Positions 3,059-57,182 of a DNA stretch of 64,000 bases are shown piece by piece. Origin of the DNA: Terriglobales bacterium. GTDB taxonomy: Bacteria > Acidobacteriota > Terriglobia > Terriglobales > Acidobacteriaceae. The notes below the pieces were generated by a model that was given only the letters and a program-made list of their open reading frames with translations, was not told the DNA's origin and searched no databases. Each line of letters begins with the position of its first letter. Within the stretch, counting starts at the first letter, position 1. The stretch is from the NCBI GenBank assembly GCA_016201265.1, contig JACQDD010000210.1, positions 3,102 to 67,101 on the forward strand, in the 5' to 3' direction. A program made the translations under genes and the position numbers.

Positions 3059-4309
3059 ATGAAGGATACGCTCGGAGTCCTGCTCGCCGGAGGCGCGGGC
3101 GAGCGTCTCTATCCGCTGACCCGCGATCGTGCCAAGCCGGCCGTCACCTTTGGCGGCATCTACCGCATCATTGACATCACGCTGTCGAATTGCCTGAACT
3201 CGGGCTTACGCCGCGTCCACATCCTGACCCAATACAAGGCGCTCTCTCTCAACCGGCACATCCGCGAGGGTTGGAATATCTTTGGCCGGGAGATCGGCGA
3301 GTTCATCGAAATCCTGCCGCCCATGAAGCGGGTAAGCGAGAACTGGTACATGGGAACGGCGGACGCGGTCTATCAGAACATCTATTCGATCGGCTCGGAG
3401 CAGCCGAAGCATGTGCTGATCCTGTCGGGCGATCACATCTACAAGATGGATTACGGGCGCATGCTGCAGCAGCACAAAGATGCCGGCGCCGATGTGACGG
3501 TGGCCACCATTCTGGTGGACCCGGCGGAATGCCACCATTTCGGCGTGGTCGAAATTGACCGCACCAGCCGGATCGTCGGTTTCCAGGAAAAGCCCAAGCA
3601 GACCGATCTGCGTTCGCCTTACGACCCGACGAAAATTTCGGCATCGATGGGCGTCTATCTTTTCAATACCGATGTGCTCATCCCGGTGCTGCTGAAGGAC
3701 GCCGAGGATCCGGACTCGAGCCATGACTTCGGCAAGAACATTCTGCCCAAGATGCTCGACGACTACCGTGTGTTCTCGTTCAACTTCGTGGACGAGAACA
3801 AAAAGGAAGCGCAGTACTGGCGGGACGTGGGGACGCTGGAGGCGTACTACGAAGCCAACATGGACCTGGTGTCGGTGTCGCCGGTGTTCAATCTGTACGA
3901 CGAGCACTGGCCCATCCGGACGCACCAGCGGCAGTATCCGCCGGCGAAGTTTGTCTTTGCCGAAGCGGCGCGCATGGGACACGCGCTGGATTCGCTGGTG
4001 TCCCAGGGCTGCATCATCTCGGGCGGCACGGTGCAGGAATGCGTGATCTCGCCGGATGTGCGAGTGAACTCGTTCAGCGAGGTCGAGGCGAGCATTCTGT
4101 TCTCCCACGTAAACGTGGGACGCCGTTGCAAGATCCGGAGGGCGATCCTCGACCGGGACGTGCACATTCCGGAAGGAACAACCATCGGATACGACGCCGA
4201 AGCCGACCGCGAGCGCTATTTTGTGACCGACAGCGGCATCACGGTGGTGACACGCGACTACTCGCTATTTGAGAATCCGGTGACGGTGGATTACTTTACG
4301 AGCGAGTAG
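3059..4309 (+). CDS. glgC: Glucose-1-phosphate adenylyltransferase
   Basis: MKDTLGVLLAGGAGERLYPLTRDRAKPAV is the GlgC N-terminal signature, and similarity runs the full length. I prefer the ATG at 3059 to the track start at 2984, which adds an unconserved 25 aa. Confidence 0.9.
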   Translation: MKDTLGVLLAGGAGERLYPLTRDRAKPAVTFGGIYRIIDITLSNCLNSGLRRVHILTQYKALSLNRHIREGWNIFGREIGEFIEILPPMKRVSENWYMGTADAVYQNIYSIGSEQPKHVLILSGDHIYKMDYGRMLQQHKDAGADVTVATILVDPAECHHFGVVEIDRTSRIVGFQEKPKQTDLRSPYDPTKISASMGVYLFNTDVLIPVLLKDAEDPDSSHDFGKNILPKMLDDYRVFSFNFVDENKKEAQYWRDVGTLEAYYEANMDLVSVSPVFNLYDEHWPIRTHQRQYPPAKFVFAEAARMGHALDSLVSQGCIISGGTVQECVISPDVRVNSFSEVEASILFSHVNVGRRCKIRRAILDRDVHIPEGTTIGYDAEADRERYFVTDSGITVVTRDYSLFENPVTVDYFTSE

Positions 4310-4400
4310 TTCGGAGTTCGTAGTTCGGAGTTCGGTTTCCAGGCCAAGTTTCGGTTGAACCTGGTTCACACAAACTACGAACTACCAACTACGAACTACC
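4307..4400. repeat. Heptamer-array inverted pair (GTTCGGA/GTTCGTA units) forming a roughly 29-bp stem hairpin
   Basis: Left array GTAGTTCGGAGTTCGTAGTTCGGAGTTCGG; right array CAAACTACGAACTACCAACTACGAACTACC. They pair at 25 of 29 positions with a roughly 34-nt loop. The element begins at the glgC TAG stop. Confidence 0.9.
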
Positions 4401-6970: not shown

Positions 6971-7099
6971 CGGCCGTCCCTCCGGGACTGGACTTGAATT
7001 CCTCACTTCTCCCAGCGCTGAAGCGCGGGGCTAAGTTCGGCCGCCCCTCTTGGGGCTTGTTCAGCAGCAGGCAGCTTTAGTGTAACTCTGTGCCCGCGG

Positions 7100-8971
7100 T
7101 CACGAGCGGGCGGCGGCTTGGGTCGGGGCATTGGCAGGCTGCGTCAGCGCCGGCAGACGCAAGCGGAAGGTGGTGCCGACGCCGACGGTGGATTCGAAAT
7201 CCACCTTGCCATGGTGCCACTCTACGTACTGGGAGGCCTGCGCCAGCCCGATCCCGCTTCCGCCCTTATCTTTCCTGGTGGTGAAGTAGAGTTGAAAAAT
7301 TTTTCCCTGAAGCTCGGGAGGAATGCCGCAGCCCTGGTCGCGTACTTCGGTGAGGATAGTGTCGTCCTCGCGATGAGCGGCAAGAGTCAGCGTTCCGCCC
7401 TGGGGCATGGCCTGCACTCCGTTCAATACCAGGTTCAGAACCGCCTGCTTCATGAGATCGAAGTCGACGCGCACCAGGAGAGGCTCGCCGGGCAACTCGC
7501 GGGCCAGGCGCACGCCGTGCTGCTCGGCATCGGGGGTGGCAAGAAGCGAGACGTCTTCCAGAATTTTTCGCATATCCACCTCTTGCTCGCGGAGTTCGCG
7601 CGGGCGCGTGAAATCCACCAGGGTCTGCACCACGTCATCGAGGCGGTGGATCTCGTCGCCGATGACGTCCATATGGCGCCGGGTCTCGGGATCTGCGCGC
7701 TGCATCTTGTTCTGAAGCAATTGCAGGTGCAGCACGATGGCATTCATGGGGTTCTTGACCTCGTGGGCTACCTCTTTCGTCTGGCGGCCGCTGACCGACA
7801 GGCGGCGGGAGATTTCGATTTCATCTTCAATGCGGTGCACCGACTCGAGATCACGCATGATAAGCAGAGCCCCGATGGAGGAGCCTTTTTCGTGGATGAA
7901 ATCGAGCGAGACCTGAACGCGACGTTTGTCGGCGGCATCGAATTCGTACTGCGCAAGAGGACGTTGCTGCAGGAAAGCCGGCAGCACGACGGCACCCAAG
8001 TGGGAACCGTCGGAAAAAATCTCTTCGGCGCTGCGTCCCAGGATTTCTTGGCGGGGCCGGCCGAGGAACTTTTCCGCGGAGGCGCTGACCAGCACGACGT
8101 GGGAATCGCGGGTGAAGAGCATGAGGCCATCCTGCAGATTGGCCATGACCTGCTCGACGTTGTCCTTGAGGGCGGAGAAGATCTGGTTGGTGTCGCGGAT
8201 CTGGCGGCCGAGGTGGGCAATTTTCAAGGAGACGAGGCCGACTTCGTCGGCGGCAGAATCGTCGGCGGGCAGCATCTCGGTTGCTCCGGCGCTGGCGCTG
8301 TCGAGGTTGCGCGCGATTCTCTTTAAAGGTCCCAGGGCGACGTTCGAGATCACCGCGGACAGCACTAGCGAACAGAAGATGGCGACGACGCAGAAGAATG
8401 CTGCCTGCTGCAGGCGGGGGTTGAGTTCGTTGCGGAGAAAAACCGTCGCGACTCCGACACGGACGCTGCCGAAGGGCTGGCCGCCGAGTTCCAAGGGGAT
8501 GCTCACGTCATACACAGTGGCGGGGCTGTAGAGCATGCGCAACTGGCGGCGGAAGCCGGCATCGCGCAAGACGATCAGGTCGGGGCGAGGCGGAACGGGT
8601 TTGCCGTTGAGCGCGGGATTGGTGTCGAGGATGGCGATGCCGGTGGGATCAACGATGGCGGCGTCGTAGATGATCTGCGAATTTCCGACGACGGACTCGA
8701 GCATGTCGTTCAGGTTGGTGTCGGTCTGGAGGTAGTCGGAAACGGCGGCGCGCAGGGCCTTAGGATTGGCGGTATCGACTCGGGTGCTGGAAAGATCGGG
8801 GACGGCCTTGGAGGCGGCGTACTCCAACTGGCGGGTGAGCATGGAGGCAGTTTCGTCGGCCCAGAGCATGCGTTGCCGCAGCAATTGCGAGAGATAGATC
8901 CAGGAAAAGCCGAACACCAACGCGGTGATGAGCGTGGTGATCACGAACACGATAATGGCTTTGCGGCTCAT
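7100..8971 (-). CDS. Sensor histidine kinase (TM-periplasmic-TM, HAMP, PAS, HisKA, HATPase_c; NtrB/AtoS-like)
   Basis: 623 aa. It has the H-box EVAHEVKNPMNAI, the N-box LNLVLNGVQAM and the G-boxes DQGCGI...GGSGIGL. It lies directly downstream of the NtrC-type regulator. Confidence 0.9.
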   Translation of the reverse strand: MSRKAIIVFVITTLITALVFGFSWIYLSQLLRQRMLWADETASMLTRQLEYAASKAVPDLSSTRVDTANPKALRAAVSDYLQTDTNLNDMLESVVGNSQIIYDAAIVDPTGIAILDTNPALNGKPVPPRPDLIVLRDAGFRRQLRMLYSPATVYDVSIPLELGGQPFGSVRVGVATVFLRNELNPRLQQAAFFCVVAIFCSLVLSAVISNVALGPLKRIARNLDSASAGATEMLPADDSAADEVGLVSLKIAHLGRQIRDTNQIFSALKDNVEQVMANLQDGLMLFTRDSHVVLVSASAEKFLGRPRQEILGRSAEEIFSDGSHLGAVVLPAFLQQRPLAQYEFDAADKRRVQVSLDFIHEKGSSIGALLIMRDLESVHRIEDEIEISRRLSVSGRQTKEVAHEVKNPMNAIVLHLQLLQNKMQRADPETRRHMDVIGDEIHRLDDVVQTLVDFTRPRELREQEVDMRKILEDVSLLATPDAEQHGVRLARELPGEPLLVRVDFDLMKQAVLNLVLNGVQAMPQGGTLTLAAHREDDTILTEVRDQGCGIPPELQGKIFQLYFTTRKDKGGSGIGLAQASQYVEWHHGKVDFESTVGVGTTFRLRLPALTQPANAPTQAAARS

Positions 8972-8980
8972 GGTTAGAAA

Positions 8981-9074
8981 ACCAGTTCCCAGTTCTCAGT
9001 TCTCGGTTCTCAGCAAGAGCACAGGGGTTTCAGGCAGGACTGAAAACTGAGAACTGGGATCTGAGAACTGGTTC
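8981..9074. repeat. Heptamer-array inverted pair (same GTTCTCR unit family as 714-797)
   Basis: ACCAGTTCCCAGTTCTCAGTTCTCGGTTCTCAG ... CTGAAAACTGAGAACTGGGATCTGAGAACTGGT pair at 28 of 33 positions. The element fills the gap between the response-regulator stop (9082) and the kinase start (8971). Confidence 0.9.
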
Positions 9075-9081
9075 TTACGCG

Positions 9082-10473
<1,392 letters not shown>

Positions 10474-12540: not shown

Positions 12541-14535
12541 ATGAAACGGGGCGTTATCCGCAAGAGTCTGTTGGTGCTGGCTTTCGGGCTGGTGAGTACG
12601 GCGCTGCTGGCCTCCGGATCGTGGCAAGTGTTGGGTCCGGATGGCGGCGACGCGCGCAGCCTGGCCTACGATTCCCACAATCCCGACCACATGCTGCTGG
12701 GCACGAGCACGGGTCAGTTGTTTGTCTCGAACGATGCGGGACACAGCTGGTCGCGTTTTGCCCGCCTGGGTGGCGATGACTATGTGCTCGATCACATCGC
12801 GATCGATCCTCAGGATTCGAAGCGCGTGTATGTGTCGGCCTGGAGCTTGTCGAGCCAGCAGATCGGCGACATTTACCGCACCCGCGACGGCGGCAAGAAC
12901 TGGGAAACCCTGCCCGCGATGCACGGCAAGTCCATTCGCGCGATGGCGGTGTTTCACGCTAATTCGAAGGTGCTGGTAGCGGGAGCGCTGGAGGGCGTGT
13001 TCCGCAGCAAGGATGGCGGCGATAGCTGGGAGCGCATGTCGCCCGCGAATCACTCCGATATCAAAAACATTGAATCGATAGCTGTCGATCCAAAGGATTC
13101 CAACATCGTTTATGCCGGCACCTGGCACCTGGCCTGGAAGACGGCCGATGGCGGCGCCTCGTGGCAGCAGATCAAGAAGGGCATGATTGACGATTCGGAC
13201 GTGTTCTCGGTGATCGTGGACCATGCCAATCCTGCGGTGGTTTTCGCCAGCGCCTGCTCGGGCATCTACAAGAGCGAGAGCGCGGGCAACCAGTTCTCGA
13301 AGATCCAGGGCATCCCGTTTTCGGCGCGGCGCACGCGCGTGCTGAAGCAGGATCCGACCAACGAGAACATCGTTTATGCGGGCACGACGGAGGGGCTGTG
13401 GAAGACCATGGACCTGGGCAAGACCTGGAAGCGGGTGAGTAACCCGGAGATCGTGGTCAACGATGTGCTGGTTGATCCGCGGGATTCGAATCACGTGCTT
13501 CTGGCGACGGACCGCAGCGGCGTGATGGCGAGCAACGACGGAACGCAGAGCTGGTCCACGTCGAATCGGGGCTACGCGCATCGCTACGTCTCGGCCCTTC
13601 TGGCCGATGTGAAAGAAGCGGACACGTTCTACGTGGGCCTGGTGAACGACCGGGAATACGGGGGCGTTTTCTATACGCGAGACGCCGGACGCAGCTGGCT
13701 GCAGAGGAGCGCTGGGCTGGGCGGGCGTGACATTTTCTCGCTCAAGCAAGCAGCGGGCGGCACACTGGTGGCGGGAACCAATCGCGGGATGTTCTCCCTC
13801 GAGCGCAATGCCAGCGAGTGGCGTCCGATGAACGCGGTGGTGACGGAGCAGATCGTCAAGACCACGAAGAAAGGGTCGAAAAAAGCCGCGACCACAACCA
13901 TCGTGAAGAAGTCGGAACTGGATGCTCGGGTGAACGATTTGGAACTGGGCTCACAGCGCTGGCTGGCGGCGACGACCCAGGGCATCTTCAGCAGTACCGA
14001 CCAGGGTAAGACCTGGAAGGGCGGGCCGGTGCTGGGACAGAAAGACTTCGTCTCAGTGCGGGCGCAGGGGTCGTTTATGGTGGCCACCACGCGATCGAGC
14101 GCACTGGTTTCCAATGATTCGGGCGCGACCTGGAAACAGGCCGGGCTGCCTTCCTACCTGGTTGGCATCCGCGGCAGCGCGATTGCCCACGACGGTGGAA
14201 TCGTGATCGCCGCTCGCGAAGGCGTCTTCCGCAGCGGAGACAACGGCACGAGCTGGGAGCATGTCGTGAACGGGCTACCGGGGAAGGACATCACTTCGGT
14301 CAGCTTTGACGCGGCTAACAAACGGTTGCTGGCGACCAGCGATTCGACGGGCGTGATCTTCGTCAGCAGCGACAGCGGACGCTCATGGCAGCGCGGTCCG
14401 GACAGCGGATTCCCGCTGCGTCGGGTCAGCGTGGTGGGCGGACGTTTCGTGGCGGCGACTCCGTTTGACGGCGTGGTGGTACAGCCGGAAGACGGGAACA
14501 TCAGCGCTGCGGCTGGAACGGGTAGCACCAACTAG
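12541..14535 (+). CDS. Secreted BNR/Asp-box repeat protein (double beta-propeller, GH74/Ycf48-like)
   Basis: 664 aa with a signal peptide and about 11 SxDxGxxW Asp-box motifs (SNDAGHSW, TRDGGKNW, SKDGGDSW, TADGGASW, STDQGKTW, SSDSGRSW and others). Confidence 0.85.
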   Translation: MKRGVIRKSLLVLAFGLVSTALLASGSWQVLGPDGGDARSLAYDSHNPDHMLLGTSTGQLFVSNDAGHSWSRFARLGGDDYVLDHIAIDPQDSKRVYVSAWSLSSQQIGDIYRTRDGGKNWETLPAMHGKSIRAMAVFHANSKVLVAGALEGVFRSKDGGDSWERMSPANHSDIKNIESIAVDPKDSNIVYAGTWHLAWKTADGGASWQQIKKGMIDDSDVFSVIVDHANPAVVFASACSGIYKSESAGNQFSKIQGIPFSARRTRVLKQDPTNENIVYAGTTEGLWKTMDLGKTWKRVSNPEIVVNDVLVDPRDSNHVLLATDRSGVMASNDGTQSWSTSNRGYAHRYVSALLADVKEADTFYVGLVNDREYGGVFYTRDAGRSWLQRSAGLGGRDIFSLKQAAGGTLVAGTNRGMFSLERNASEWRPMNAVVTEQIVKTTKKGSKKAATTTIVKKSELDARVNDLELGSQRWLAATTQGIFSSTDQGKTWKGGPVLGQKDFVSVRAQGSFMVATTRSSALVSNDSGATWKQAGLPSYLVGIRGSAIAHDGGIVIAAREGVFRSGDNGTSWEHVVNGLPGKDITSVSFDAANKRLLATSDSTGVIFVSSDSGRSWQRGPDSGFPLRRVSVVGGRFVAATPFDGVVVQPEDGNISAAAGTGSTN

Positions 14536-14562
14536 CACTCAGCAATCAGCAGTCAGCATTCA
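14536..14562. repeat. Heptamer tandem array (CAGCAAT/CAGCAGT/CAGCATT)
   Basis: Begins directly after the TAG stop of the BNR gene and runs into the terminator stem. Confidence 0.85.
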
Positions 14563-14587
14563 GGGGAGCGGGGACGCTCCCCTTTTT
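14563..14587 (+). terminator. Rho-independent terminator
   Basis: GGGGAGCG-ggga-CGCTCCCC followed by TTTTT. Confidence 0.85.
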
Positions 14588-14611
14588 GCGTTGAGGTTGC
14601 GGTGAGAGGCT

Positions 14612-14643
14612 CAGCACTTGGCATTTAGCACTTGGCACTTAGC
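14612..14643. repeat. Heptamer tandem array (CACTTGG/CATTTAG/CACTTAG)
   Basis: CAGCACTTGGCATTTAGCACTTGGCACTTAGC. The same unit family occurs at 24450-24545, 31923-31954 and 32851-32884. Confidence 0.9.
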
Positions 14644-24449: not shown

Positions 24450-24545
24450 CAGCACTTGGCACTTAGCACTTGGCATTTAGCCCTTTGAGGGCGGTGGCAG
24501 AGCTTTGATTTGGCCAAGTGCTAAATGCCAAGTGCTAAGTGCTGG
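24450..24545. repeat. Heptamer-array inverted pair (CACTTGG/CACTTAG/CATTTAG) forming a roughly 33-bp stem hairpin
   Basis: CAGCACTTGGCACTTAGCACTTGGCATTTAGCC ... GGCCAAGTGCTAAATGCCAAGTGCTAAGTGCTGG pair at 27 of 33 positions. It fills the infC-rpmI spacer and abuts the rpmI GGAG. Confidence 0.9.
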
Positions 24546-24747: not shown

Positions 24748-24752
24748 AAACA

Positions 24753-24782
24753 GTCGCTAGTCGCTGGTCGCTAGTCGCTAGC
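24753..24782. repeat. Heptamer tandem array (GTCGCTA/GTCGCTG)
   Basis: GTCGCTAGTCGCTGGTCGCTAGTCGCTAGC, directly after the rpmI stop. Confidence 0.9.
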
Positions 24783-24909: not shown

Positions 24910-25272
24910 ATGCCTCGTGTAAAACGCGGTACCAAACGCCGCGCCAAGCGCAAGAAAATCCTTGAACGCGCTAGTGGATATTTCCTAACTAAGTCCAAAC
25001 TCTACCGGTCCGCGAAAGAAGCGGTCGAGCGCGGCCTGAAGTTCGCCTACTCCGGACGCAAGCAGAAAAAGCGCCAATATCGCTCGATATGGATCGTGCG
25101 CATCGGCGCTGCTGCCCGACTACACGGACTGAATTACAACCAGTTCATCAGCGGGCTGAAGAAAGCCGGCGTGGAACTGGACCGCAAGATTCTGGCGGAC
25201 CTGGCGGTGAAGGATCCGGCGGGGTTTGGGAGTCTGGCGGAGCAGGCGAAGAAGGCGCACGCAGCGGCGTAG
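24910..25272 (+). CDS. rplT: 50S ribosomal protein L20
   Basis: [24 protein letters not shown] is the canonical L20 N-terminus. Confidence 0.95.
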
Positions 25273-25303
25273 CCGTCAGCATTCAGCCGTCGGCACTCAG
25301 TCC
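25273..25303. repeat. Degenerate heptamer array (CGTCAGC/ATTCAGC/CGTCGGC/ACTCAGT)
   Basis: Starts directly after the rplT TAG stop and shows 7-nt periodicity. Confidence 0.7.
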
Positions 25304-26537: not shown

Positions 26538-26570
26538 GTCGTTGGTCGCTCGTCGTTGGTCGCTCGCGAG
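26538..26570. repeat. Heptamer array (GTCGTTG/GTCGCTC, i.e. a 14-nt unit x2)
   Basis: GTCGTTGGTCGCTCGTCGTTGGTCGCTCGCGAG, directly after the pheS TAG stop. Confidence 0.88.
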
Positions 26571-31273: not shown

Positions 31274-31609
31274 ATGGCGACGGCGACCAAGCAACCACCG
31301 ACCAAGGATGCCGCGAACGGAAGCGTGCGGGTGGAGATCTTCGACCAGGTCTACAACCTGCGCGGTTCGGATGCGGACTACATTCTGAAACTCGCCGAGT
31401 ATGTGGACATGAAGATGCGCGCGGTCTCCGAGCAGACCGCCACAGTCGATTCGGTGCGGCTGGCCGTTTTGGCTGCCCTAAATATTGCGGACGAATATCA
31501 TCTGCTGAAGCGGCGCGTGGAGGTGCCGGCGCCGGAAGTCCGGCAGCGCGCTAGTAAACTGGAGAGCGCGCTCGACGAAGTTTTGCAAGATACCCGCCGC
31601 ACCGGGTGA
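31274..31609 (+). CDS. zapA: Cell division protein ZapA
   Basis: 111 aa. VRVEIFDQVYNLRGSDADYILKLAEYVDMKMRAV...LAVLAALNIADEY matches the ZapA pattern. Confidence 0.8.
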   Translation: MATATKQPPTKDAANGSVRVEIFDQVYNLRGSDADYILKLAEYVDMKMRAVSEQTATVDSVRLAVLAALNIADEYHLLKRRVEVPAPEVRQRASKLESALDEVLQDTRRTG

Positions 31610-31922
31610 AGTCCTTCGTAACCTGCCGTTCCTGCGAGATCGCAGACGCGTAGCAACCTTCCTGCCAACTATTTGTGTTTTGCCTCTTGCGAATCTCTGA
31701 GGGATTTCCTAGCATCGAACTGGAAAGCCGGCCTGCTAGGTTGGTGCTGGTGGTCACCGATTTTTGAACCAATGCAGAATGAACGGGGACTCGACTCGAA
31801 CTAGGATCCGGTGTGCCATGTTCCGCCATGCGGAAAGGCCTAAAGGGTCTCGGCGGGTTCCCAACGTCTAACAGGCGGGTTCATTCTCGGCCCATCAACA
31901 CGGCGGTGCGGGTCGGCTTTTT

Positions 31923-31954
31923 CAGCACTTGGCACTTGGCATTTAGCACTTGGC
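31923..31954. repeat. Heptamer tandem array (CACTTGG/CATTTAG)
   Basis: CAGCACTTGGCACTTGGCATTTAGCACTTGGC, preceded by GGCTTTTTC. Confidence 0.88.
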
Positions 31955-32053
31955 TCTTGTGCTTCACGACGAGAATGCTTCCTGGGACCTGTGACCTCCT
32001 CTCCTGCTAGACTTCTGTCAGTACACTGCCCAAACCGGAGCATCTAAACCAAC

Positions 32054-32860
32054 GTGTTTCCCCGACTCTTCCACATTGGCAGCTTCAACCTGCCCACCTA
32101 CGGATTCCTGGTCGCGGCTGGCGTACTCATTGGGCTCTGGATCAGCGTGCGCAATTCCGAGAAACAGGGGATCAATGGCGATGACGCCTGGAACCTGGGC
32201 ATTCTCGTGGTTCTGGCGGGTATCGTAGGCGCCAAACTCCTGCTCATCGTCAACGAGTGGGACAACTATGCTGGCAATCTTAGACAGATCTTCAGTCTGA
32301 ACACCTTGCAGTCGGGGGGAGTTTTTTCCGGTGGCCTGATAGGGGCGCTGCTGATGGCAGCCTGGTATATGCGCCGTCACCGGATGCCGGCTTTGCGGAC
32401 CTGCGACGGATTTGCGCCCGGCCTCGCGTTTGGACACGTGCTCGGACGATTTGGTTGCTTTTCCGCCGGCTGCTGTTTTGGCAAAGAGACCCATCATTCC
32501 TGGGGCGTGATTTTTGCCAACCCTCTGGCCCACGACTGGTCGGGAACTCCGTTGGGAAAGTCGCTGGAACCCACGCAACTGATCGAAGCCGCGGCTGAGT
32601 TTTTCAATTTTGTTCTTCTGATGTGGCTGCTCAAGCGCAAGAAGTTCGACGGGCAAGTGTTTGGCAGCTTCATGATCCTTTACGGGATCGAGCGGTACTT
32701 CATCGAGTTTCTGCGCGGTGATCCGGGGCGCGGCTTGGTGTTCGGCGGGCTGATGACTGGGACGCAGCTGATTTCCATCTTCCTCGTGATCGGCGGCGGG
32801 CTGATCTGGTGGCTGAAGAGTGGAACGTCGAAGGCATTGGCGGCGGAAAGCGGCACTTAG
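32054..32860 (+). CDS. lgt: Prolipoprotein diacylglyceryl transferase
   Basis: 268 aa with a GTG start. It has multiple TM helices, and GRFGCFSAGCCFGKET is the Lgt signature. Confidence 0.9.
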   Translation: MFPRLFHIGSFNLPTYGFLVAAGVLIGLWISVRNSEKQGINGDDAWNLGILVVLAGIVGAKLLLIVNEWDNYAGNLRQIFSLNTLQSGGVFSGGLIGALLMAAWYMRRHRMPALRTCDGFAPGLAFGHVLGRFGCFSAGCCFGKETHHSWGVIFANPLAHDWSGTPLGKSLEPTQLIEAAAEFFNFVLLMWLLKRKKFDGQVFGSFMILYGIERYFIEFLRGDPGRGLVFGGLMTGTQLISIFLVIGGGLIWWLKSGTSKALAAESGT

Positions 32861-32884
32861 CACTTGGCACTTAGCCTTTAGCTC
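32851..32884. repeat. Heptamer tandem array (CACTTAG/CACTTGG) spanning the lgt stop codon
   Basis: CGGCACTTAGCACTTGGCACTTAGCCTTTAGCTC. It lies between the convergent lgt and ligD genes. Confidence 0.88.
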
Positions 32885-32892
32885 AACACCCG

Positions 32893-34755
32893 CTATTCGC
32901 TACTTGGCAATGCGCCTTCCAGTCTGCACTCCTTCGGATCCTTGTCGAACCGCAGCCCGAGAAACACGGGCGCGCGCAGCTTCATTCCTCCTTCGGCGGT
33001 CTCGTGCGTCCACTCGGAGAACTTGATCTCGGCCATCAGTTCCGGGCGCACGAAGTGGACCTGGTGCAGGCCGCCGATCTCGCCATGAAACGGGTTGGTC
33101 TTCGTTTCGAGTGGGCGCAGACGCTCGAATATCTGCTTCAAACTTTTCTGATCGAAGCCGCTGCCGGCCTGGCCCACGTGGATGAGGCGTCCGCGCTTAT
33201 CGTAGAGGCCGAGCACCACCGAGCCGAAATATTGGCGGCTGCCTTCCGGGTCGGTGTAGCCGCCGATGACGCACTCCTGTCGCTGCGTGATCTTGATCTT
33301 CAGCCATTCCCGCGACCGTTCCTCCTGATAAACGCTGTCGCGCTTCTTGGCGACGATCCCTTCCAGGCCGCGCTGCTTGGCCGCGTCAAACAGGGCGCGG
33401 CCTTTTTCGGCATAGTGGTCAGAGAAGTGGACAACGTCTCCGTTTTCTAGCACGGACTGGAGCAGTTCTTTACGTTTCTCCAGGCTCACCCGGCGCAGGT
33501 CGTAGCCGTCGAGGTAAAGCAGGTCGAAGGCGTAGTACAGGACCGGAACTCCTTCGCGGCGCGGGAGGCGGCGTTTACCGGGCTGGAATCTGGTGCGCTG
33601 CTGCATCAGGCTGAACGACGGACGGCCGTGTTCGTCGAGGGCAACGATCTCTCCGTCGAGGACGGCGCGCCGGGCCTTTACGCACTTGGGCAAGTCGCGG
33701 AGTTCGGGAAACTGCGCGCTGAGATCGTTCTGGTTGCGCGAGACCAGACGCACGGCGCGGTCTGCGATGAAGGCGATGGCGCGATAGCCGTCCCACTTGA
33801 TCTCGAACAGCCAGCCGGGATTGTCGAAAGGCTCGTCAATAGAGGTGGCGAGCATCGGGTGGATCGCGGTGGGCATGGGCTTCTCGACGGCACCGGGTAA
33901 ACCCTTTACCACAGAGGACACAGGGGACACAGAGGAGTTCTTGTTTGTTACCCTCGATGGGGATGCCGGTCTCGCGCTAGCAGCGGCGCGTCGTCCGGAT
34001 GCGCTCTTCTTCTTGCTTTTCTCTGTGTCCCCTGTGTCCTCTGTGGTTAAGGCTTTTCGCTTTTTGTCGGCGCGCGCCACAGCCTCCGCCAACCAAGCGG
34101 CTTTCAACTTGCCGCGCGTCGCTGGGCGGCTGCTGGTCCATTCTGCCGAACCTTGGTCTCCGGCGATCTCGGCCATGGTGCGGCCGGTCAGCACTGAGGT
34201 GTCGTACTGGTCGATGTCGAATCCGGCGACGATGTCGTTGTCTTTCTTCTTGATCAGGAGCCATTCGGTTCCCTTGCTTCCCGGCCGGCGGCCCGTGATG
34301 TGCACCAGCGCGAAGTCGCCGTTCAGCCGCTTCCCTTTCAGCCGGAATTTGAGATCGCCCTTGGCCAACATGGCGGCAGCTTCTTTTTCCGTGCCGGGGA
34401 CGTACTCTCCGTTTACAGGAACCGGAGAGAGCGGTTGCCAGGTACCCACGTCCCAGACCATCACCGTCCCGCCGCCGTAGTTGCCTTCGGGGATGGTGCC
34501 TTCGAAATCGAAATACGAGACGGGATGATCTTCCACCTGCATGGCCAGGCGCTTGTCGGCGGGATCGAGTGAAGGGCCTTTGGGGACGGCCCACGATTTC
34601 AGCACGCCTTCCATTTCCAGGCGGAAGTCGTAATGCAAGCGGGTGGCAGCGTGGCACTGCACGACGAAGCGATGCTTCGACTGCTTTTCAATTTTCGGCG
34701 GGGGTTCAGGCGTTTCCTCGAAGCGCCGTTTTCGTTTGTATTCCTCGAGGGACAT
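32893..34755 (-). CDS. ligD: ATP-dependent DNA ligase LigD (3'-phosphoesterase + ligase domains; no polymerase domain)
   Basis: 620 aa. The N-terminal [33 protein letters not shown] is the phosphoesterase-domain signature. The ligase motif I is EIKWDGYR. An OB-fold domain follows. Confidence 0.9.
33906..34050. repeat. 29-bp near-perfect inverted repeat with 86-bp spacer, inside the ligD coding sequence
   Basis: 33906-33934 (TTACCACAGAGGACACAGGGGACACAGAG) is the reverse complement of 34021-34050 (CTCTGTGTCCCCTGTGTCCTCTGTGGTTAA) apart from one indel. The flank GGTTAAGGCTTTTCGC resembles the dispersed core GGTTAAAGCTTTTGACCGC. Confidence 0.9.
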
Positions 34756-34766
34756 GGTGGGTATTG

Positions 34767-34834
34767 TAGTTCGGAGTTCGGAGTTCGGAGTTCGGAGTTC
34801 GCAAAACGCCCTCTACACCGAACTACGAACTACG
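34767..34834. repeat. Heptamer array (GAGTTCG x5) with a short inverted partner
   Basis: GTAGTTCGGAGTTCGGAGTTCGGAGTTCGGAGTTCGC ... CACCGAACTACGAACTACG. It lies in the divergent ligD/NUDIX intergenic region. Confidence 0.88.
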
Positions 34835-50142: not shown

Positions 50143-51294
50143 GTGTCAAGAGTTTCCCGCGCCGGCCAAAACAACCGGCCAACAACCCCCTTGCTCTTGC
50201 CTCTTCGGCTGTGCGAGACTGCGCCCGTGCCCCCTCGCAAGAAGCCCGGCCGAATCGCGCCGGGAGGCGACGGCCGCCCCAAGCCGCGAGTTACGCTCAA
50301 GGTCCTGGCGGACCACCTTGGTCTTTCGCCGGCCACGGTTTCGCTCGTCATGAATCAGGCCCCGGTGGCCGATACCATCCCCCGGGCGACCCAGGAGCGT
50401 ATTTTCGCCGCCGCCCGGGAACTGAACTACCGTCCCAGTTTCGCCGCGCGCTTTGCCCGCACTCAGCGCAGCTTTACCGTCGGCGTGATCGTTCCCGAGG
50501 TCAGCGAAGGCTATGCCGCCCTGGTCATGAGCGGGATCGAGGACCATCTGCTCAAGGAAGGTTATTTCTACCTGGTGGCCAGCCATCGCCACCGCGACGA
50601 CCTGATTGATGAATATCCCAACCTGCTGCTGGGGCGCTCGGTGGACGGGTTGATCGCCGTGGACACGCCATGGCGTCACCAGCTACCCATTCCGGTGGTG
50701 ACCGTCTCCGGCCATAACGGGTCGAATGGTGTCACCAACATTCTGCTCGACCATAAGCATGCCGCCGAACTGGCGCTGCGCCACTTGCAGCAACTCGGCC
50801 ACGAACGCATCGCCGTCATCAAGGGACAGGAGTTCAGTTCCGATACTGAGGTCCGGTGGAAGTCGATTGCCGACGCCGCCGCGCGCCTCGGTCTGCGGTT
50901 GTACCCCAACTTGACGGTGCAACTGCAGAGCGACCTGGCCGGCCCGCAGCTCGGCTATCGCGTAACCAAGCGCCTGCTGGAACGAAAAGAAAAATTCACG
51001 GCCCTGTTCGCGTTCAATGACATCTCCGCCATCGGCGCGATCGGAGCCTTGCGGGACTCAAAGCTGGAAGTCCCCAGGGACGTCTCGGTGGTGGGTTTTG
51101 ACGACATTCAGAGCGCGGCGTTTCAGAATCCGCGGCTGACGACCATCCGCCAGCCGTTGCGGAAAATGGGGATGGTTGCCGCCGAGAATCTGCTGCGCCG
51201 CATCGCCCGGCCGGATGATGATTCTTACCCACGCGAGATTGTGGTGGAGCCGGAGCTGGTGGTGCGCGAATCCACCGCGCGCGCGGCTGGCTAG
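50143..51294 (+). CDS. LacI family transcriptional regulator
   Basis: It has the HTH VTLKVLADHLGLSPATVSLVMNQ and a periplasmic-binding-protein-like effector domain. The start is uncertain: GTG at 50143 or in-frame GTG at 50227. Confidence 0.85.
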   Translation: MSRVSRAGQNNRPTTPLLLPLRLCETAPVPPRKKPGRIAPGGDGRPKPRVTLKVLADHLGLSPATVSLVMNQAPVADTIPRATQERIFAAARELNYRPSFAARFARTQRSFTVGVIVPEVSEGYAALVMSGIEDHLLKEGYFYLVASHRHRDDLIDEYPNLLLGRSVDGLIAVDTPWRHQLPIPVVTVSGHNGSNGVTNILLDHKHAAELALRHLQQLGHERIAVIKGQEFSSDTEVRWKSIADAAARLGLRLYPNLTVQLQSDLAGPQLGYRVTKRLLERKEKFTALFAFNDISAIGAIGALRDSKLEVPRDVSVVGFDDIQSAAFQNPRLTTIRQPLRKMGMVAAENLLRRIARPDDDSYPREIVVEPELVVRESTARAAG

Positions 51295-51333: not shown

Positions 51334-51429
51334 ATTTTCTCGGCGTCCTCCGCGATTTTTTCTCCGCGCTCCCTGCGGTTAAAGCTTTTGACCGCCGAGG
51401 ACGCAGAGGTCCCGCAGAGTTCGCTGGAA
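51334..51429. repeat. Dispersed REP-like element, copy B (CTCCGCGCTCCCTGCGGTTAAAGCTTTTGACCGCCGAGGACGCAGAGG)
   Basis: The palindrome is centred on AAAGCTTT. The core at 51381-51426 is about 85-88% identical to 6336-6382. Confidence 0.8.
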
Positions 51430-51444: not shown

Positions 51445-52356
51445 TCACTTGCTCGCGGCTGATTGGGCCGTGCCGAACACGGCATCCACCGTCGCTACAA
51501 TCTGTTCCATGGCGCCGTCGATATCCATGGTGAAGCGAGCCAGGTCCATGTCAGCAAGCGCGGGATGGGTCTTCGCCAGAGTTTGCCACGCCAATTCGCC
51601 GCCCAGCTCCATCCCCATGATCTCGTCGTAACCGTAACCCAGGTAGCGCACGCGGCAGAGCAGATCGCCTAAGTGAACCAGGCAAACCAGGGGCTGTGGG
51701 GCCGGCAGGAGTTCCACATTGTGGTGACCGTAAGCGACGTCGGACAAATCCCGCGGCAGTCCCCAGTGCTCAGCCAGCATCTTTCCGCTCTCGCAATGCG
51801 TGAACCCCAGGATCTCCTCTTCGCACAGATGGAGGGCGCGGCGCTGCTCGGTGGCCGACTGCAGGCACTTGCGAAAATCTTTGGTACAGAGCAACGAATT
51901 CACCAGAATGCCCAGGTCATGTAGCAATCCTCCCAGGTAGGCCTTTTCGGGTTCGGCATAACCGATTCGTTGCGCCATTCGTTGCGTGACTAGAGCACAG
52001 CCCAGGGAATGCCGCCAGAACGCGACCGGCTCGAACACCCACTTGTCTTTCGGTATCACCCGATTGATGCACAATCCGAACAGCATGGACCGCACTCTTT
52101 GCAGGCCGAGCGCCATGACCGCAGCGCGCACCGTTTCCACCTCGCGGCATCCGAACAGGGGAGAATTCGCCATGCGCAAGCACTGGGCCGCGATGGCTCC
52201 GTCGTAGGAAACCAGCTCCACTACCTTGTCGAAGCTGATTTTCTCGGCCGGCATACGCAGAATCTCGAGGAGCGGCTGCAGGATTACGGGCGCCGTCGAA
52301 ATCGAATCCAGCTTCTTGACCTGCTCCTGCAGTTTTTCGAGCTTTTGGGCGGTCAT
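51445..52356 (-). CDS. HDOD domain protein
   Basis: The ATG at 52356 overlaps the cheR TGA (ATGA) and follows GGTGGAGG. PVILQPLLEIL...DGAIAAQCLRMANSPLFG...AFWRHSLGCALV...LGGLLHDLGILV is the HDOD pattern. Confidence 0.85.
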   Translation of the reverse strand: MTAQKLEKLQEQVKKLDSISTAPVILQPLLEILRMPAEKISFDKVVELVSYDGAIAAQCLRMANSPLFGCREVETVRAAVMALGLQRVRSMLFGLCINRVIPKDKWVFEPVAFWRHSLGCALVTQRMAQRIGYAEPEKAYLGGLLHDLGILVNSLLCTKDFRKCLQSATEQRRALHLCEEEILGFTHCESGKMLAEHWGLPRDLSDVAYGHHNVELLPAPQPLVCLVHLGDLLCRVRYLGYGYDEIMGMELGGELAWQTLAKTHPALADMDLARFTMDIDGAMEQIVATVDAVFGTAQSAASK

Positions 52357-53324
52357 TTCTTGCCTCCACCGGCGGCGCCGGCCAGCGCCTTGCAGTACGC
52401 GGTCGCCCCGGGGAAATGGACCAGGCGAAAGGTGTCGTCCACCTGAAACAGCGATTCGGCGTGTCCCAGGAAGAGGTAGCCGTTGGGCAGCAGGTTGGAA
52501 TAAAAGTGCTGCACCACCCGGCGCTTCGACGCCAGATCGAAATAGATCAGCACATTGCAGCAAAAGATCACGTCCATGCCTTTCAGAAACACCATCTTGC
52601 TGTCATCGCTGAGGTTGACCCGGTCAAAGCGAATCTGCGATTTGAGTTGGTCGGTGACCTGCAGTCTCTTTTCGTCGTGGACCTTGAAGTATTTTCTTCG
52701 CAGCAGTTCGCTGGTGTTGCGCAACGCGTACTCGCCGTAAATACCCGCCTTGGCAGCTTCCAGCGAGTTGTCGTTCAGGTCGGTGGCCAGAATGTCGAAG
52801 CTCCAGCCAGCCAGCAGTTTCTCGCTTTCTTCCAGCAAAAACATGGCCAGCGTGTAGGGCTCCTCTCCGGTCGAGCAACCGGCGTTCCAGAAGCGCAGGC
52901 GCTTGAAACCCATCGCGCTCTTGGCTTGCACGATCTGGGGAAGAATCACGTTGCGCAGCGCCTCCAGATGCGGAGGACTGCGGAACATGTAGGTCTCGCC
53001 AATGGTGATTTCGTTCAACAGCAGGCGCAGCTCGGCGTCGCGGTTTCCGCGCAGCGTGAGGTGCTCGAGATACTCCGAGGCGGTCTTCGCGCCGACCACG
53101 CTCATGCGGCGGGCAGATCGCGATACCAGGAGATAGAGTTTTTCTTCCGGCTGATAGATGCCCGACATCCGGTAGATCAGATCGCGAATCTTCAAGTACG
53201 CCGGATCGCTGGAAACGGGTTCCGGAATTGCCGTCGGCATCGCTTTTGCGGCTTCGATCGCCATGGTCGTGTCTTTCGCCGGCCCCTGCTTCCCGGCATG
53301 GGGTTCTTGCCTCCCGGCGCTCAT
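52353..53324 (-). CDS. cheR: Chemotaxis protein methyltransferase CheR
   Basis: It has [27 protein letters not shown] and [13 protein letters not shown]. The ATG at 53324 overlaps the cheB TGA (ATGA); ATG at 53264 is the alternative. The longer track ORF overlaps cheB and is rejected. Confidence 0.9.
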
Positions 53325-54464: not shown

Positions 54465-57182
54465 TTACGAACCTGCCCCGGCGCTCATTGCCCTCGAGGC
54501 TTGCGGCCTCGCCTGATGCCCAGAGTGTGCATCATTCTCAATCTTGAATTGCGAAACCAGTTCGCGCAGCTTGGTCGACATCTGTGCCAAGGACTGTGCC
54601 GCCTTCAGCGAGTCGTTGGCCCCATGGGTCGTGCTCTTCGCCGCCTCCGCCACGCCGGCGATGTTCTGGCTGATCTCGCCCGAACCGCGCGCCGCTTCGC
54701 TGACGTTGCGGGACATTTCGTTGGTCGTGGCGTTTTGCTCTTCCACGGCGGTGGCGATCGTGTTGGAGATGTCGTTCACCTGCTTGATCACCTCGCCGAT
54801 CTGACTGATGGCGTCAACCGCGCTCTTGGTGTCGCCCTGGATCGCCTCAATCTTGCGGCTGATGTCCTCCGTCGCCTTGGCCGTCTGCTTAGCCAGTTCC
54901 TTGACCTCGTTGGCCACCACCGCAAAACCCTTGCCGGCTTCGCCGGCGCGGGCGGCTTCGATGGTGGCATTCAAGGCCAGCAGATTGGTCTGCTGGGCAA
55001 TCGAGGTGATGACCTTGATGACCTGCCCAATTTCGGTGCTGGAATCTCCCAGTTTGCTCACGATCTGGTTGGTATCTTCCGCCACCTTGACCGCACTGGT
55101 GGCGACCTTCGCCGATTCATGAGCGTTCTTGGCGATTTCCTTGATGCTGGCACTCATTTCTTCGGTGCCGGTCGCCACGGTCTGGAGGTTCTTGTTGACT
55201 TGCTCAGCCCCAGCCGAAACTACGTTGGCTTGTGCCGAGGTTTCTTCCGCGTTGGCGCTCATCTGCTGGCTGGTGGCCGTCAGTTCCTCCGCGGAACTCG
55301 ACAGCGCCTGCGCGTTCTGCCCGAGCGTCTCCATGCTTCCCCGGAGCGTGTCGGCCGTCTTGTTGGTTGCTTTCCCGACCTCCGCGAAGACTCCCTGGTA
55401 CGTCCCCCGGACGCGACGCGTGTAGTCGTTCGCTGCCATCAACTGCAGAACCTCATTGGCCTCAACTAACCCACCCAGGCCATCGATACAAGCGTTGAGG
55501 TTGTTCTTGATGGTGTTGAAATCCCCGTTGTAGGTGTCCGTGATCTTGGGCGGCACGTCGCCCTTGGAGATCTGGTCCACGTACTTGGCCGCCACGTTCA
55601 AAGGCCCGATCACCGCGTCCAGGGTCTCGTTCACTCCCTGCACGATCTTGCGGTAGTCGCCCTGGTGCATGCCGGCATCGGCCCGCGTCGCCAGCTTGCC
55701 CTCCACCGCCGCCTTCGACAGCATGCCGGCATCGGCCACCAGCGCGTTCACTGCGTCGATGCACTGGTTCAGATTGTTCTTGATGGTGTTGAAGTCGCCG
55801 TTGTAGTTGTTTGTGATCTTCGGTGGGATTTCGCCCTTGCTGATCTTGTCGACGAAGTCGGCAGCCACATTCAGGGGCCCGATCACGGCGTCCAGCGTGG
55901 CGTTGACGCCCTCGACGACCTTGCGGTAGTCGCCCTGGTGCTTGCCGGCGTCAGCCCGCGTCGCCAGCTTACCCTCCACCGCCGCCTTCGACAGCATGGC
56001 AGCGTCGGCCAGCATTGCGTTCAGTGCCAACTTCTGTTGCGTGACGTCGGTGGCGTACTTCACCACTTTGAAGGGCTTGCCGTGCAAATCCATGATGGGG
56101 TTGCAGGAAGCCTGAATCCAGACTTCCGTCCCGCCCTTGCCCAGCCGCTTGTACTCGGCCGCCTGGTACTCGCCCCGGTTCAGCTTGGCCCAGAACTCCT
56201 TGTAGTCCGCGCTCTGCCGGTAGGCTTCATCCACGAACATGCTGTGATGCTTGCCCTTGACCTCTTCCAGGGTGTAGCCCAGGGCCTTGAGGAAGTTCTC
56301 GTTGGCTTGGACAACCGTTCCGTCCATCTGAAATTCGACCACCGCCTGCGACTTGCCGATGGCGGCAATCTGGCCGGCATAGTCCGCGTTTTGCACTTCC
56401 AGCCGCAGCTTCTCCGTGACCACATCCCAGGTGACCATGGGTCCCAAGTAGTTCTGCTGAGCGTCATATATGGGACTGACGAGAAGACTCAGGGTCTCCG
56501 GCCCCAGCTGGATGTTCGCCTGATGGGGCAGGTTCTTGGGATCGCTGAGCAGACGACGCGGGTGCGCGGGATTCTTGTGGAAAATGTCGATCGAACTTCC
56601 CAGGACATCGTCCACCTTGCAGGGCAGCAGGTGTGCAAGCGTGCTCAGAGTTCTCTTCGAAGCGGCGTTCATGTAGCGGATAATGAAATCGGCGTCGGCC
56701 CGCATTACATTGATGGGAGAATTTTCCACCATCTGCTGGAACATGAGAGCTTCCTTGTTATCCGCCGCGAGGGAGTCTTCCGAAGACACGGTATTCACGA
56801 TCTCGGCAGCAAGCGCCTGTACAAGGGCGACAATCTCGTCGATGGCAGTGTCGTCCACATGCAGCGACTTGAGGCTGGCCACCAGATGCTGCGCGACTCG
56901 GTCGAAATGACGCTGTTCGATATGCAGACCGGCGTGAAGTTCACGCATACCGGGCCCCTTGTAGCGGGCCGGCCCGCCAAGCGCCTGGGAAAAGAACGCG
57001 ACTTGCTGCTCCTTCAGCCGTTTCATGTTGACCCCGGCGAAGAATGGACGAAGGACGACGTCTCCCAGGATACGGACATACATCCCTTCCACGGCTGCAC
57101 GGACGGCGTTTTCGCCGCCGATGGTCTCATAAATGGTTGCTACGGCGGCTCCGCCGCTATTTCCGTTGCGCTTGCCTCTCAT
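54465..57182 (-). CDS. Soluble methyl-accepting chemotaxis protein: truncated haemoglobin (group I) + 2 PAS + duplicated HAMP-like module + MA domain
   Basis: 905 aa with no TM segment. The N-terminus is globin-like: [72 protein letters not shown]. The C-terminal signalling domain includes [37 protein letters not shown]. Confidence 0.9.

Follow-up and report, generated by a model that had tools for sequence, protein, structure and literature searches.

We analysed 64,000 nucleotides of a Terriglobales genome (contig JACQDD010000210.1; hereafter the window), in which an open reading frame (ORF) on the reverse strand encodes a LigD protein and contains, between the sequences for its phosphoesterase (PE) and ATP-dependent ligase domains, a long inverted repeat. 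The gene and the parts of the repeat are as follows.

32893–34755, minus strand: ligD ORF (620 aa), host gene of the hairpin, with phosphoesterase and ATP-dependent ligase domains
34021–34056, minus strand: 5′ arm, reading AAAGCCTTAACC(ACAGAGGAC)(ACAGGGGAC)ACAGAG on the coding strand; codons 234–245, in tandem 9-nt (3-codon) units
33935–34020, minus strand: loop of 86 nt; codons 246–273
33899–33934, minus strand: 3′ arm, reading CTCTGTGTCCCCTGTGTCCTCTGTGGTAAAGGGTTT on the coding strand; codons 274 (third base only) to 286

The assignment of the host gene as ligD was based on the 3′-phosphoesterase and ATP-dependent ligase domains that define this protein. Pfam matches were to PF13298 (LigD_N, residues 33–151), PF01068 (ligase, residues 300–488) and PF04679 (C-terminal, residues 507–605), and the protein scored above the NCBIfam cut-offs for TIGR02777 and TIGR02779. 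No polymerase domain was identified in the 620-aa protein by Pfam or NCBIfam. The limits of the domains were taken from matches to PDB chains, which cover residues 3–199 and 300–610 and leave the hairpin codons (234–286) outside both, in place of an AlphaFold2 model; the AlphaFold2 model of LigD was poor (mean pLDDT 41; 32 close relatives) and uninformative on disorder in the linker. By ORF calling, Pfam and PDB comparison, the frame is continuous across the hairpin and both flanking domains are intact. An initial annotation of this stretch, made from the sequence alone, had described the linker as unusually long. It is indeed longer than usual, with 148 aa between the PE motif and the ligase KxDG motif where 134 distant LigD representatives have a median of 85.5 aa, but the linkers of those proteins vary widely (33–178 aa).

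The same annotation had described the repeat as 29 bp with one indel, lying entirely within ligD. The inverted repeat and its 86-bp spacing are real and the repeat is wholly within the ORF, between the two domains, but its extent had been understated: the arms are 36 nt each, gapless and paired at 34 of 36 positions (94%), with the two mismatches at arm positions 4 and 9. The translations that had been given for the arms also proved correct (K234–E245 for the 5′ arm and S274–L286 for the 3′ arm). A full arm occurs at two places only in the window (0 expected, based on 100 shuffles), and the repeat scored 30, relative to 6.7 ± 0.8 with a maximum of 9 in 60 codon shuffles of the linker. Folding of the sense RNA gave −91.5 kcal/mol, compared to −55.6 ± 4.6 kcal/mol in shuffles (z = −7.8), bearing out the expectation of a strong hairpin in the mRNA. 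Rfam produced no match at the linker, even at E ≤ 10.

In Tandem Repeats Finder, both arms emerge as short arrays of period 9. The 5′ arm reads (A/G)CN GAG GAC, and the 3′ arm is the reverse complement of these units, read with a one-base offset from the 5′ arm, such that codon position 3 pairs with position 3 and position 1 with position 2.

Conservation and constraint across LigD orthologues

The best 120 LigD relatives were all proteins of 606–665 aa from Terriglobales metagenome-assembled genomes (MAGs), with 75–89% identity. Both linker motifs recur in these relatives, in two matched versions (T-type and A-type arms), e.g., LTAENAENAEK with SSAISASSAVK. At the nucleotide level, our sample of orthologues comprised 80 loci from different species (64–77% identity) and four closer ones, 84 in all; loci are denoted by L numbers below. 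The linker inverted repeat scored above all 60 codon shuffles in 35 of the 80 species, and most of the others had arms that were recognisable and degraded. A LigD tree of the 84 orthologues, computed with the linker left out, has three deep clades, and the hairpin was found in each of them. Its frame is near-constant among species (frame 0 for the 5′ arm and frame 2 for the 3′ arm), and its loop measures about 20 to 190 nt. Within a set of 150 distant LigD representatives, the motifs were present only in the closest, P0122 (56% identity). The hairpin at the same site within the clade and the lack of the motif in distant LigDs indicate that the element was ancestral to the clade and is absent outside it, and the ligD hairpin fits an old insertion, as judged from these alignments.

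A gene-fusion origin, in which an intergenic hairpin would have been trapped between separate PE and ligase genes, was also considered and was rejected because distant LigDs are already fused and do not have the motif. Extra copies of the 5′-arm motif were observed in the linkers of L001, L008, L012, L013 and L075 (e.g., ALNAEDAEKKALTAENAEK), with both A-type and T-type 5′ arms in L075, which shows that arms have been duplicated locally, inside the linker.

Across the orthologues, both arms change together (ACA/TGT versus GCG/CGC). Threonine (ACN) in the 5′ arm goes with valine (GTG) in the 3′ arm, and alanine (GCN) with alanine (GCG), and this matching applies at each individual position, mixed hairpins (e.g., that of L057) included. 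When 62 arm pairs were aligned with only the non-wildcard positions as anchors, 132 cells had changed on both sides, compared to 70 ± 7 in shuffled pairs (0/500) and 28–62 with slid partners. The counts at the three R:Y pairs were A:T 40, G:C 91, A:C 17 and G:T 11 (odds ratio 19, p = 2e-14). Paired synonymous bases switch jointly in all three units among the close relatives; for instance, the window has ACA with TCT/CCT and its counterpart in L084 is ACG with TCC/CCC.

The codons used within the arms were compared to those at conserved domain positions of the same genes. The ratio of GAG to GAA for Glu was 143:10 in the arms versus 526:564 in the domains, that of GAC to GAT for Asp was 48:7 versus 641:639, and that of TCN to AGY for Ser was 225:2 versus 556:230. 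In addition, some species read the same nucleotide repeat in another frame, producing the peptide TEEHRG. Together, the covariation, the codon bias and the frame-shifted readings indicate that selection at the peptide level alone is insufficient to account for the arms.

Selection on pairing in the sense mRNA would predict that imperfect pairs are mostly G.U. The imperfect pairs of the sense strand comprised 117 G.U cells versus 147 A.C cells, and this absence of a G.U excess means that there is no strand-specific RNA signature. Based on these counts, maintenance of the arms looks symmetric, as would be expected from a process acting on the DNA duplex.

The hairpin segment also has a mosaic history. 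The domain-coding DNA of the window is most similar to that of L081 (0.90–0.91) and least similar to that of L084 (0.80–0.83). The fast-evolving loop of the window is closest to that of L084 (0.76) and unlike that of L081 (0.42), and L081 itself has arms that match those of L082 (0.86–0.94) and a loop that matches no other close relative. The conflict between these loop and arm affinities and those of the domains indicates recombination or overwriting in the hairpin segment.

A dispersed 9-mer family and its nuclease genes

The ligD arms belong to a family of hairpins whose arms are tandem (RCRGAGGAC)n units, closed by ACC...GGT and mirror-complementary unit by unit; each ligD arm fits this pattern with one mismatch. 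One further member is located in the window:

51338–51413, no strand assigned: intergenic 9-mer-family element with A-type units GCNGAGGAC / GTCCTCNGC, whose arms meet at GGTTAAAGC-TTTTGACC

This element lies between convergent ORFs at 50143–51294(+) and 51445–52563(−). The A-type arm consensus derived from the orthologues matches 51362–51385 with one mismatch (0 matches expected), and the pattern ACCRCNGAGGACRCNGAGG is confined, within the window, to the 51.3-kb element and the pair of ligD arms (4 matches versus 0.09 expected). Both results uphold the kinship with the intergenic sequence at 51361–51395 that had been proposed in the initial annotation. A bare 13-mer test of this link was at chance level (3 matches versus 1.6) and was replaced by the unit- and orthologue-derived patterns. 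Further family members were identified in the flanks of orthologous loci (L071:1205–1310 and L069:2925–2975).

Scanning of metagenome contigs with a two-unit pattern identified at least 120 loci, and none of the matches listed was in or near ligD. At least 62 of these loci are hairpins with both family arms, which are 20–45 nt in length, enclose loops of 13–170 nt and typically have the ends TTCACC.../...GGTGAA. Their loops are unrelated (4 similar pairs among 50) and the GC content of their flanks ranges from 0.39 to 0.74. The annotated hosts were Bacteroides finegoldii, B. ovatus, Gemmatirosa kalamazoonensis and Rhodovastum, with 23 and 17 family places on two megaplasmids of G. kalamazoonensis. 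One B. finegoldii arm, CTCTGTGTCCCCTGTGTCCTCTGTGGT, is identical over 27 nt (27/27) to positions 34021–34047 of the window; this copy begins directly after a stop codon, between convergent genes, and is non-coding. The pattern matches, the metagenome hairpins and the copies in other phyla all support the earlier suggestion of a palindromic, dispersed family resembling repetitive extragenic palindromic (REP) sequences. Rfam has no family for these hairpins, and members from other phyla had sub-threshold matches to generic miRNA hairpin models only. A search of the literature by arm sequence and by GxxExxY/PF13366, the nuclease family introduced below, found no description of them.

The possibility raised earlier that other coding sequences hold in-frame copies yielded no clear case. 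The family pattern has no in-frame copies in other genes of the window, and the stop-free frames that span 12 of the 62 metagenome hairpins look like spurious GC-rich frames or upstream regions, leaving ligD as the sole clear in-frame case in the data examined. In B. finegoldii, a 9-mer-family hairpin (L209:8745–8895) was observed inside the annotated 5′ end of a coding sequence for a “zinc ribbon domain-containing protein” (8731–9846), and this overlap is either a mis-called start codon or another translated copy. The NZ_OY7259xx B. finegoldii “plasmid” records (L205 and L209) carry the housekeeping genes nusB, yajC, pth, thrA, thrC and radA and are probably chromosome fragments.

Several elements have, between their arms, a gene for a small GxxExxY nuclease (PF13366) of the PD-(D/E)XK superfamily:

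B. finegoldii L209: 9-mer-family arms about 435 nt apart; product of 124 aa matching PF13366 PDDEXK_3 (E = 2e-43) / TIGR04256 GxxExxY
Gemmatirosa L211: 9-mer-family arms of 32 nt, 100% complementary and 503 nt apart; GxxExxY gene between
Terriglobia MAGs L215–L217: 9-mer-family arms CTTTACCACAGAGGGCACAGAG... / ...CTCTGTGTCCTCTGTGGTAAAG of 31–34 nt, 82–88% complementary and 390–530 nt apart; GxxExxY gene
Bernardetia L212 and Sphingomonas L213: related tandem-oligomer arms; GxxExxY gene between

PF13366 has been listed in the literature as “unknown; multiple transfers” (PMC3424549). In Gemmatirosa L211, each flank of the gene is itself a complete hairpin. The element of the Terriglobia MAGs is flanked by genes for a thiolase and an acyl-CoA dehydrogenase, and that of Sphingomonas parapaucimobilis lies between fabD and fabG. 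These positions between adjacent genes of the same pathway, apparently without disruption, are probably inside operons. The GxxExxY ORFs of the Terriglobia were called through their own 5′ arm, resulting in products of 142 aa versus about 125. A search of the metagenome loci for distant partner arms enclosing a cargo gene was informative only for L135. PF05635 was tried as an alternative cargo of the 9-mer family and rejected: no homologue was found in the 120 metagenome loci listed or in the window, and such genes sit in heptamer or octamer hairpins.

Among known systems, the ligD hairpin is similar to the Rickettsia palindromic elements (RPEs), reportedly described by Ogata et al. in 2000 as palindromic repeats inserted in frame in protein-coding genes; a summary is given in PMC3733652. 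Like these, it is a dispersed, in-frame palindrome in an otherwise intact ORF, is translated as an apparently harmless flexible segment and is common to orthologues. Unlike these, it has an unrelated sequence and stems of tandem 9-mers, and its family spans several phyla and has nuclease-bearing full-length forms. By analogy, the ligD element seems to work like an RPE or an in-gene REP, from the former of which it is set apart by its host phylum and repeat architecture.

REPs have been found inside replication and repair genes, including the DNA ligase of O. terrae, and a location in flexible linkers was suggested (Di Nocera et al., PMC3733652). In common with REPs, their hairpin-forming doublets (REPINs) and REP-associated tyrosine transposases (RAYTs) (PMC3733652, PMC3116915), the 9-mer family consists of short dispersed palindromes, mostly between convergent genes, with inverted copies that flank a protein gene and occasional copies inside genes. 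However, the name REP does not apply to it in the strict sense. The GTAG/CGTC tag of REPs is absent, the ends of the arms being AAAGCCTTAACC / GGTAAAGGGTTT in ligD and TTCACC / GGTGAA in other copies, and no RAYT gene was seen between the arms, where the PF13366 nucleases lie, in a search that was not genome-wide. The cargo is thus a PD-(D/E)XK nuclease and not an IS200/IS605-like tyrosine transposase. In addition, the 9-mer arms are tandem oligomers with long, unrelated loops and are near-identical across phyla, rather than species-specific.

The anatomy of the ligD stem is comparable to that of the intervening sequences (IVSs) of 23S rRNA, associated with S23p/PF05635, for example in Coxiella burnetii, whose IVS has a tandem-repeat stem and is excised by RNase III (PMC4990558). 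Both have a long stem of terminal inverted repeats with tandem short repeats in variable number and a small or no ORF in the loop, and IVSs are regarded as selfish and tolerated in an essential transcript. The ligD hairpin differs in that its host is protein-coding and needs an open frame, rather than being helix 25/45 of 23S rRNA, and in that the family's cargo is PF13366, not PF05635. The arrangement of a PF05635 ORF in a hairpin was also found outside rRNA, in Terriglobales L083 (heptamers), Gemmatirosa L206 (octamers) and Nostoc punctiforme L208 (heptamers). Like miniature inverted-repeat transposable elements, the ligD hairpin contains no gene and is bounded by inverted repeats similar to the termini of a larger, gene-bearing element, but it has neither the conserved interior between copies nor the target-site duplication of such elements, and the partner gene encodes no recognised transposase.

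Origin and maintenance of the ligD hairpin

We consider that the ligD hairpin is probably an ancient, tolerated and gene-less copy of a selfish palindromic element, which has been kept palindromic and near its consensus by a process acting at the DNA level. The element proposed has stems of tandem 9-mers, and its full-length forms would enclose the small PD-(D/E)XK-superfamily GxxExxY (PF13366) gene. One copy would have entered, or arisen in, the DNA for the presumably disordered PE–ligase linker in an ancestor of the Terriglobales clade and would have been inherited at this site ever since. Its survival in coding DNA could be explained by the period of three codons and by the arms being one base out of register, as the encoded peptides, acidic (T/A-E-D) in one arm and Ser-rich (S-S-V/A) in the other, would then be harmless and wobble bases would pair with one another. 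The arms would be kept complementary on the DNA duplex by slippage of units, template switching in the palindrome, or gene conversion or recombination with other copies or alleles, and selection on LigD would merely filter for outcomes that are in frame and stop-free. Based on its association with family arms elsewhere, we speculate that the GxxExxY nuclease spreads or homogenises the arms.

Several observations weigh against this explanation. No direct repeat or target-site duplication is visible at the ends of the ligD arms, and no orthologue in the sample has an “empty” site in an otherwise similar linker. Because the linkers of outgroup LigDs vary in length (33–178 aa), the hairpin may instead have been born in situ within a linker that was already variable. 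No GxxExxY gene or remnant was found in any ligD loop, in the ligD flanks or in the window, which makes the ligD copy a gene-less hairpin and ties the nuclease to it by association alone. With recombination in the segment, the switches between T-type and A-type arms on the tree are not independent and provide an upper bound only. The alignment of the arms was anchored on the family consensus, so that pairing at fixed positions is inflated and the covariation claimed is that of the wildcard positions alone. The linker hairpin also outlasts the neighbouring intergenic heptamer hairpin upstream of ligD (34768–34834): the inverted repeat is kept in at least 35 of 80 species for the former and in 4 of 70 for the latter, indicating that intergenic heptamer hairpins turn over much faster than the linker copy. 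Persistence of this kind and the constraint on synonymous sites would fit a selected function equally well.

Such a function could be regulatory, the 36-bp stem having been co-opted and selected for an action in the ligD transcript or as a signal at the DNA level. It might be a target through which RNase III destroys untranslated mRNA, similar to the rRNA IVSs, or it might cause a translational pause between the domains. The deep conservation at one site with compensatory changes, the synonymous-site constraint, the retention far better than that of the neighbouring intergenic hairpin and the very stable fold (−91.5 kcal/mol, z = −7.8) are all consistent with regulation, as is the precedent of the Coxiella IVS, whose stem is built alike and which RNase III excises (PMC4990558). 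We nevertheless regard a regulatory role as rather unlikely, given that G.U cells are no more numerous than A.C cells on the sense strand (117 versus 147), that about half of the species have lost their arms or retain them only in degraded form, that the loop is unconstrained and that identical arms occur at unrelated intergenic sites in other phyla and so are not tailored to ligD. Repeated independent insertion, or overwriting by ectopic conversion, at a hot spot in the linker would replace the single vertical copy and would account for the alternation of T-type and A-type arms between sister taxa, the L081 loop that is unrelated to those of its close relatives, the extra arm copies in the five linkers noted above, and the almost perfect, consensus-like arms of the window where many relatives have degraded ones. 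A hot spot appears quite doubtful to us, however, as the position and reading frame are equal in nearly all species, the arms run on without a break into the residues beside them (KKRKAL.. / ..VKxLxGA), the window has a loop homologous to that of L084 even though no two of the five close relatives are further apart, and an empty site is lacking in every orthologue.

Two further explanations are already contradicted by the data. That the acidic TED and Ser-rich SSV repeats were selected purely as linker peptides, with complementarity as a by-product, would be in keeping with motifs that are recognisable as peptides in most orthologues. This is very improbable, since Thr is matched with Val and Ala with Ala per position as base pairing predicts (e.g., L057), synonymous codons are fixed far beyond the codon usage of the gene itself, some species translate this nucleotide repeat in a different frame, and an identical 27 nt are found in non-coding Bacteroides DNA. 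The recent, lineage-specific insertion of a mobile palindrome that was implied in the initial annotation would agree with the near-perfect arms (34/36) in this genome and with the family relative elsewhere in the window, but is scarcely credible because the 84 orthologues share the hairpin at the same site and in the same frame in three deep clades. A linker sequence common to orthologues is the very outcome that the initial annotation had set as refuting an insertion.

Palindromic selfish repeats inside genes are already known (the RPEs of Rickettsia and the REPs in repair genes). What is new here is the tandem 9-mer family, with arms that are near-identical in Acidobacteriota, Bacteroidota and Gemmatimonadota, its PF13366 cargo, and the retention of one copy at a codon-exact site across an entire order with co-evolving arms and synonymous codons pinned to the repeat consensus. 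The codon-exact site and pinned arms imply that a non-coding constraint can be the main determinant of a protein linker's sequence over very long periods. The GxxExxY/PF13366 orphan nuclease family gains a candidate role as the partner of a hairpin repeat, similar to that of RAYTs with REPINs and of S23p with the rRNA IVSs. For annotation, low-complexity “linkers” and N-terminal extensions in the proteins of these phyla can be translated repeat arms, and a 36-bp stem inside the mRNA of a repair gene may affect its expression.

Other features and repeats of the window

Immediately upstream of ligD, we observed a promoter-like sequence:

34756–34780: region of a −10-like box upstream of the ligD ATG at 34755 (minus strand), also at the same position in L001–L084

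The box, TACAAT (TAGAAT or TAAAAT in other clades), lies 7–8 nt upstream of the ligD start in nearly all of 70 species. There is no room for a Shine–Dalgarno sequence at the start codon, which suggests that the ligD mRNA is leaderless. In one clade, the box belongs to ...GTGGTTAAAT, which resembles the end of a 9-mer-family arm. A scan for terminators and promoters around ligD produced nothing relevant; the length of the stem-loop exceeds what the terminator model accommodates.

Tandem-heptamer hairpins and single arms abound in the intergenic regions of the window and have the architecture of the ligD hairpin with a period of 7 instead of 9:

Heptamer sites: 715–796, 4306–4400, 8983–9070, 14534–14643, 24451–24543, 24752–24781
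Heptamer sites: 25271–25300, 26538–26566, 31925–31959, 32853–32875, 34768–34834

Families of heptamer units (GCACTTR, AGTTCGG, GTTCTCR and GTCGCTR) recur at different loci, and the hairpin at 700–805 folds at −57 kcal/mol (z = −9.3). The hairpin at 34768–34834, between ligD and a divergent NUDIX gene, is common to L081 and L001; elsewhere the units are mostly different or absent. In the close relative L083 (12766–13275), a PF05635 gene (23S_rRNA_IVP/four-helix-bundle, weakly Avd-like) is located in the loop of a heptamer hairpin of GGTGTCA units, adjoining lgt. This gene is absent from the corresponding region of the window (31609–32054), which has a single heptamer arm, and from the other relatives.

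A broader and more tentative interpretation, which we think unlikely as a whole, is that tandem-oligomer hairpins represent one undescribed selfish class that crosses phyla and would include the ligD 9-mer family, the heptamer hairpins of the window, the heptamer repeats of cyanobacteria and the rRNA intervening sequences. Recognition of the hairpin or cruciform by the cargo protein, a PF13366 nuclease or a PF05635 four-helix bundle, would set off homing-like conversion between copies, which, if true, would explain the identity of arms across phyla. The ligD copy would then be a renewed target of conversion and may have been co-opted, with formation of the stem (e.g., through RNase III cleavage of untranslated mRNA) possibly gating production of the end-joining ligase.

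Two other features were identified in the window. An Acido-Lenti-1 RNA at 7011–7057 (+) was the only Rfam family above threshold (39.8 bits versus a gathering score of 37). At 55483–56027 there are two tandem copies of a 272–273-nt unit with 83% identity, which probably represent an internal duplication in a coding region.

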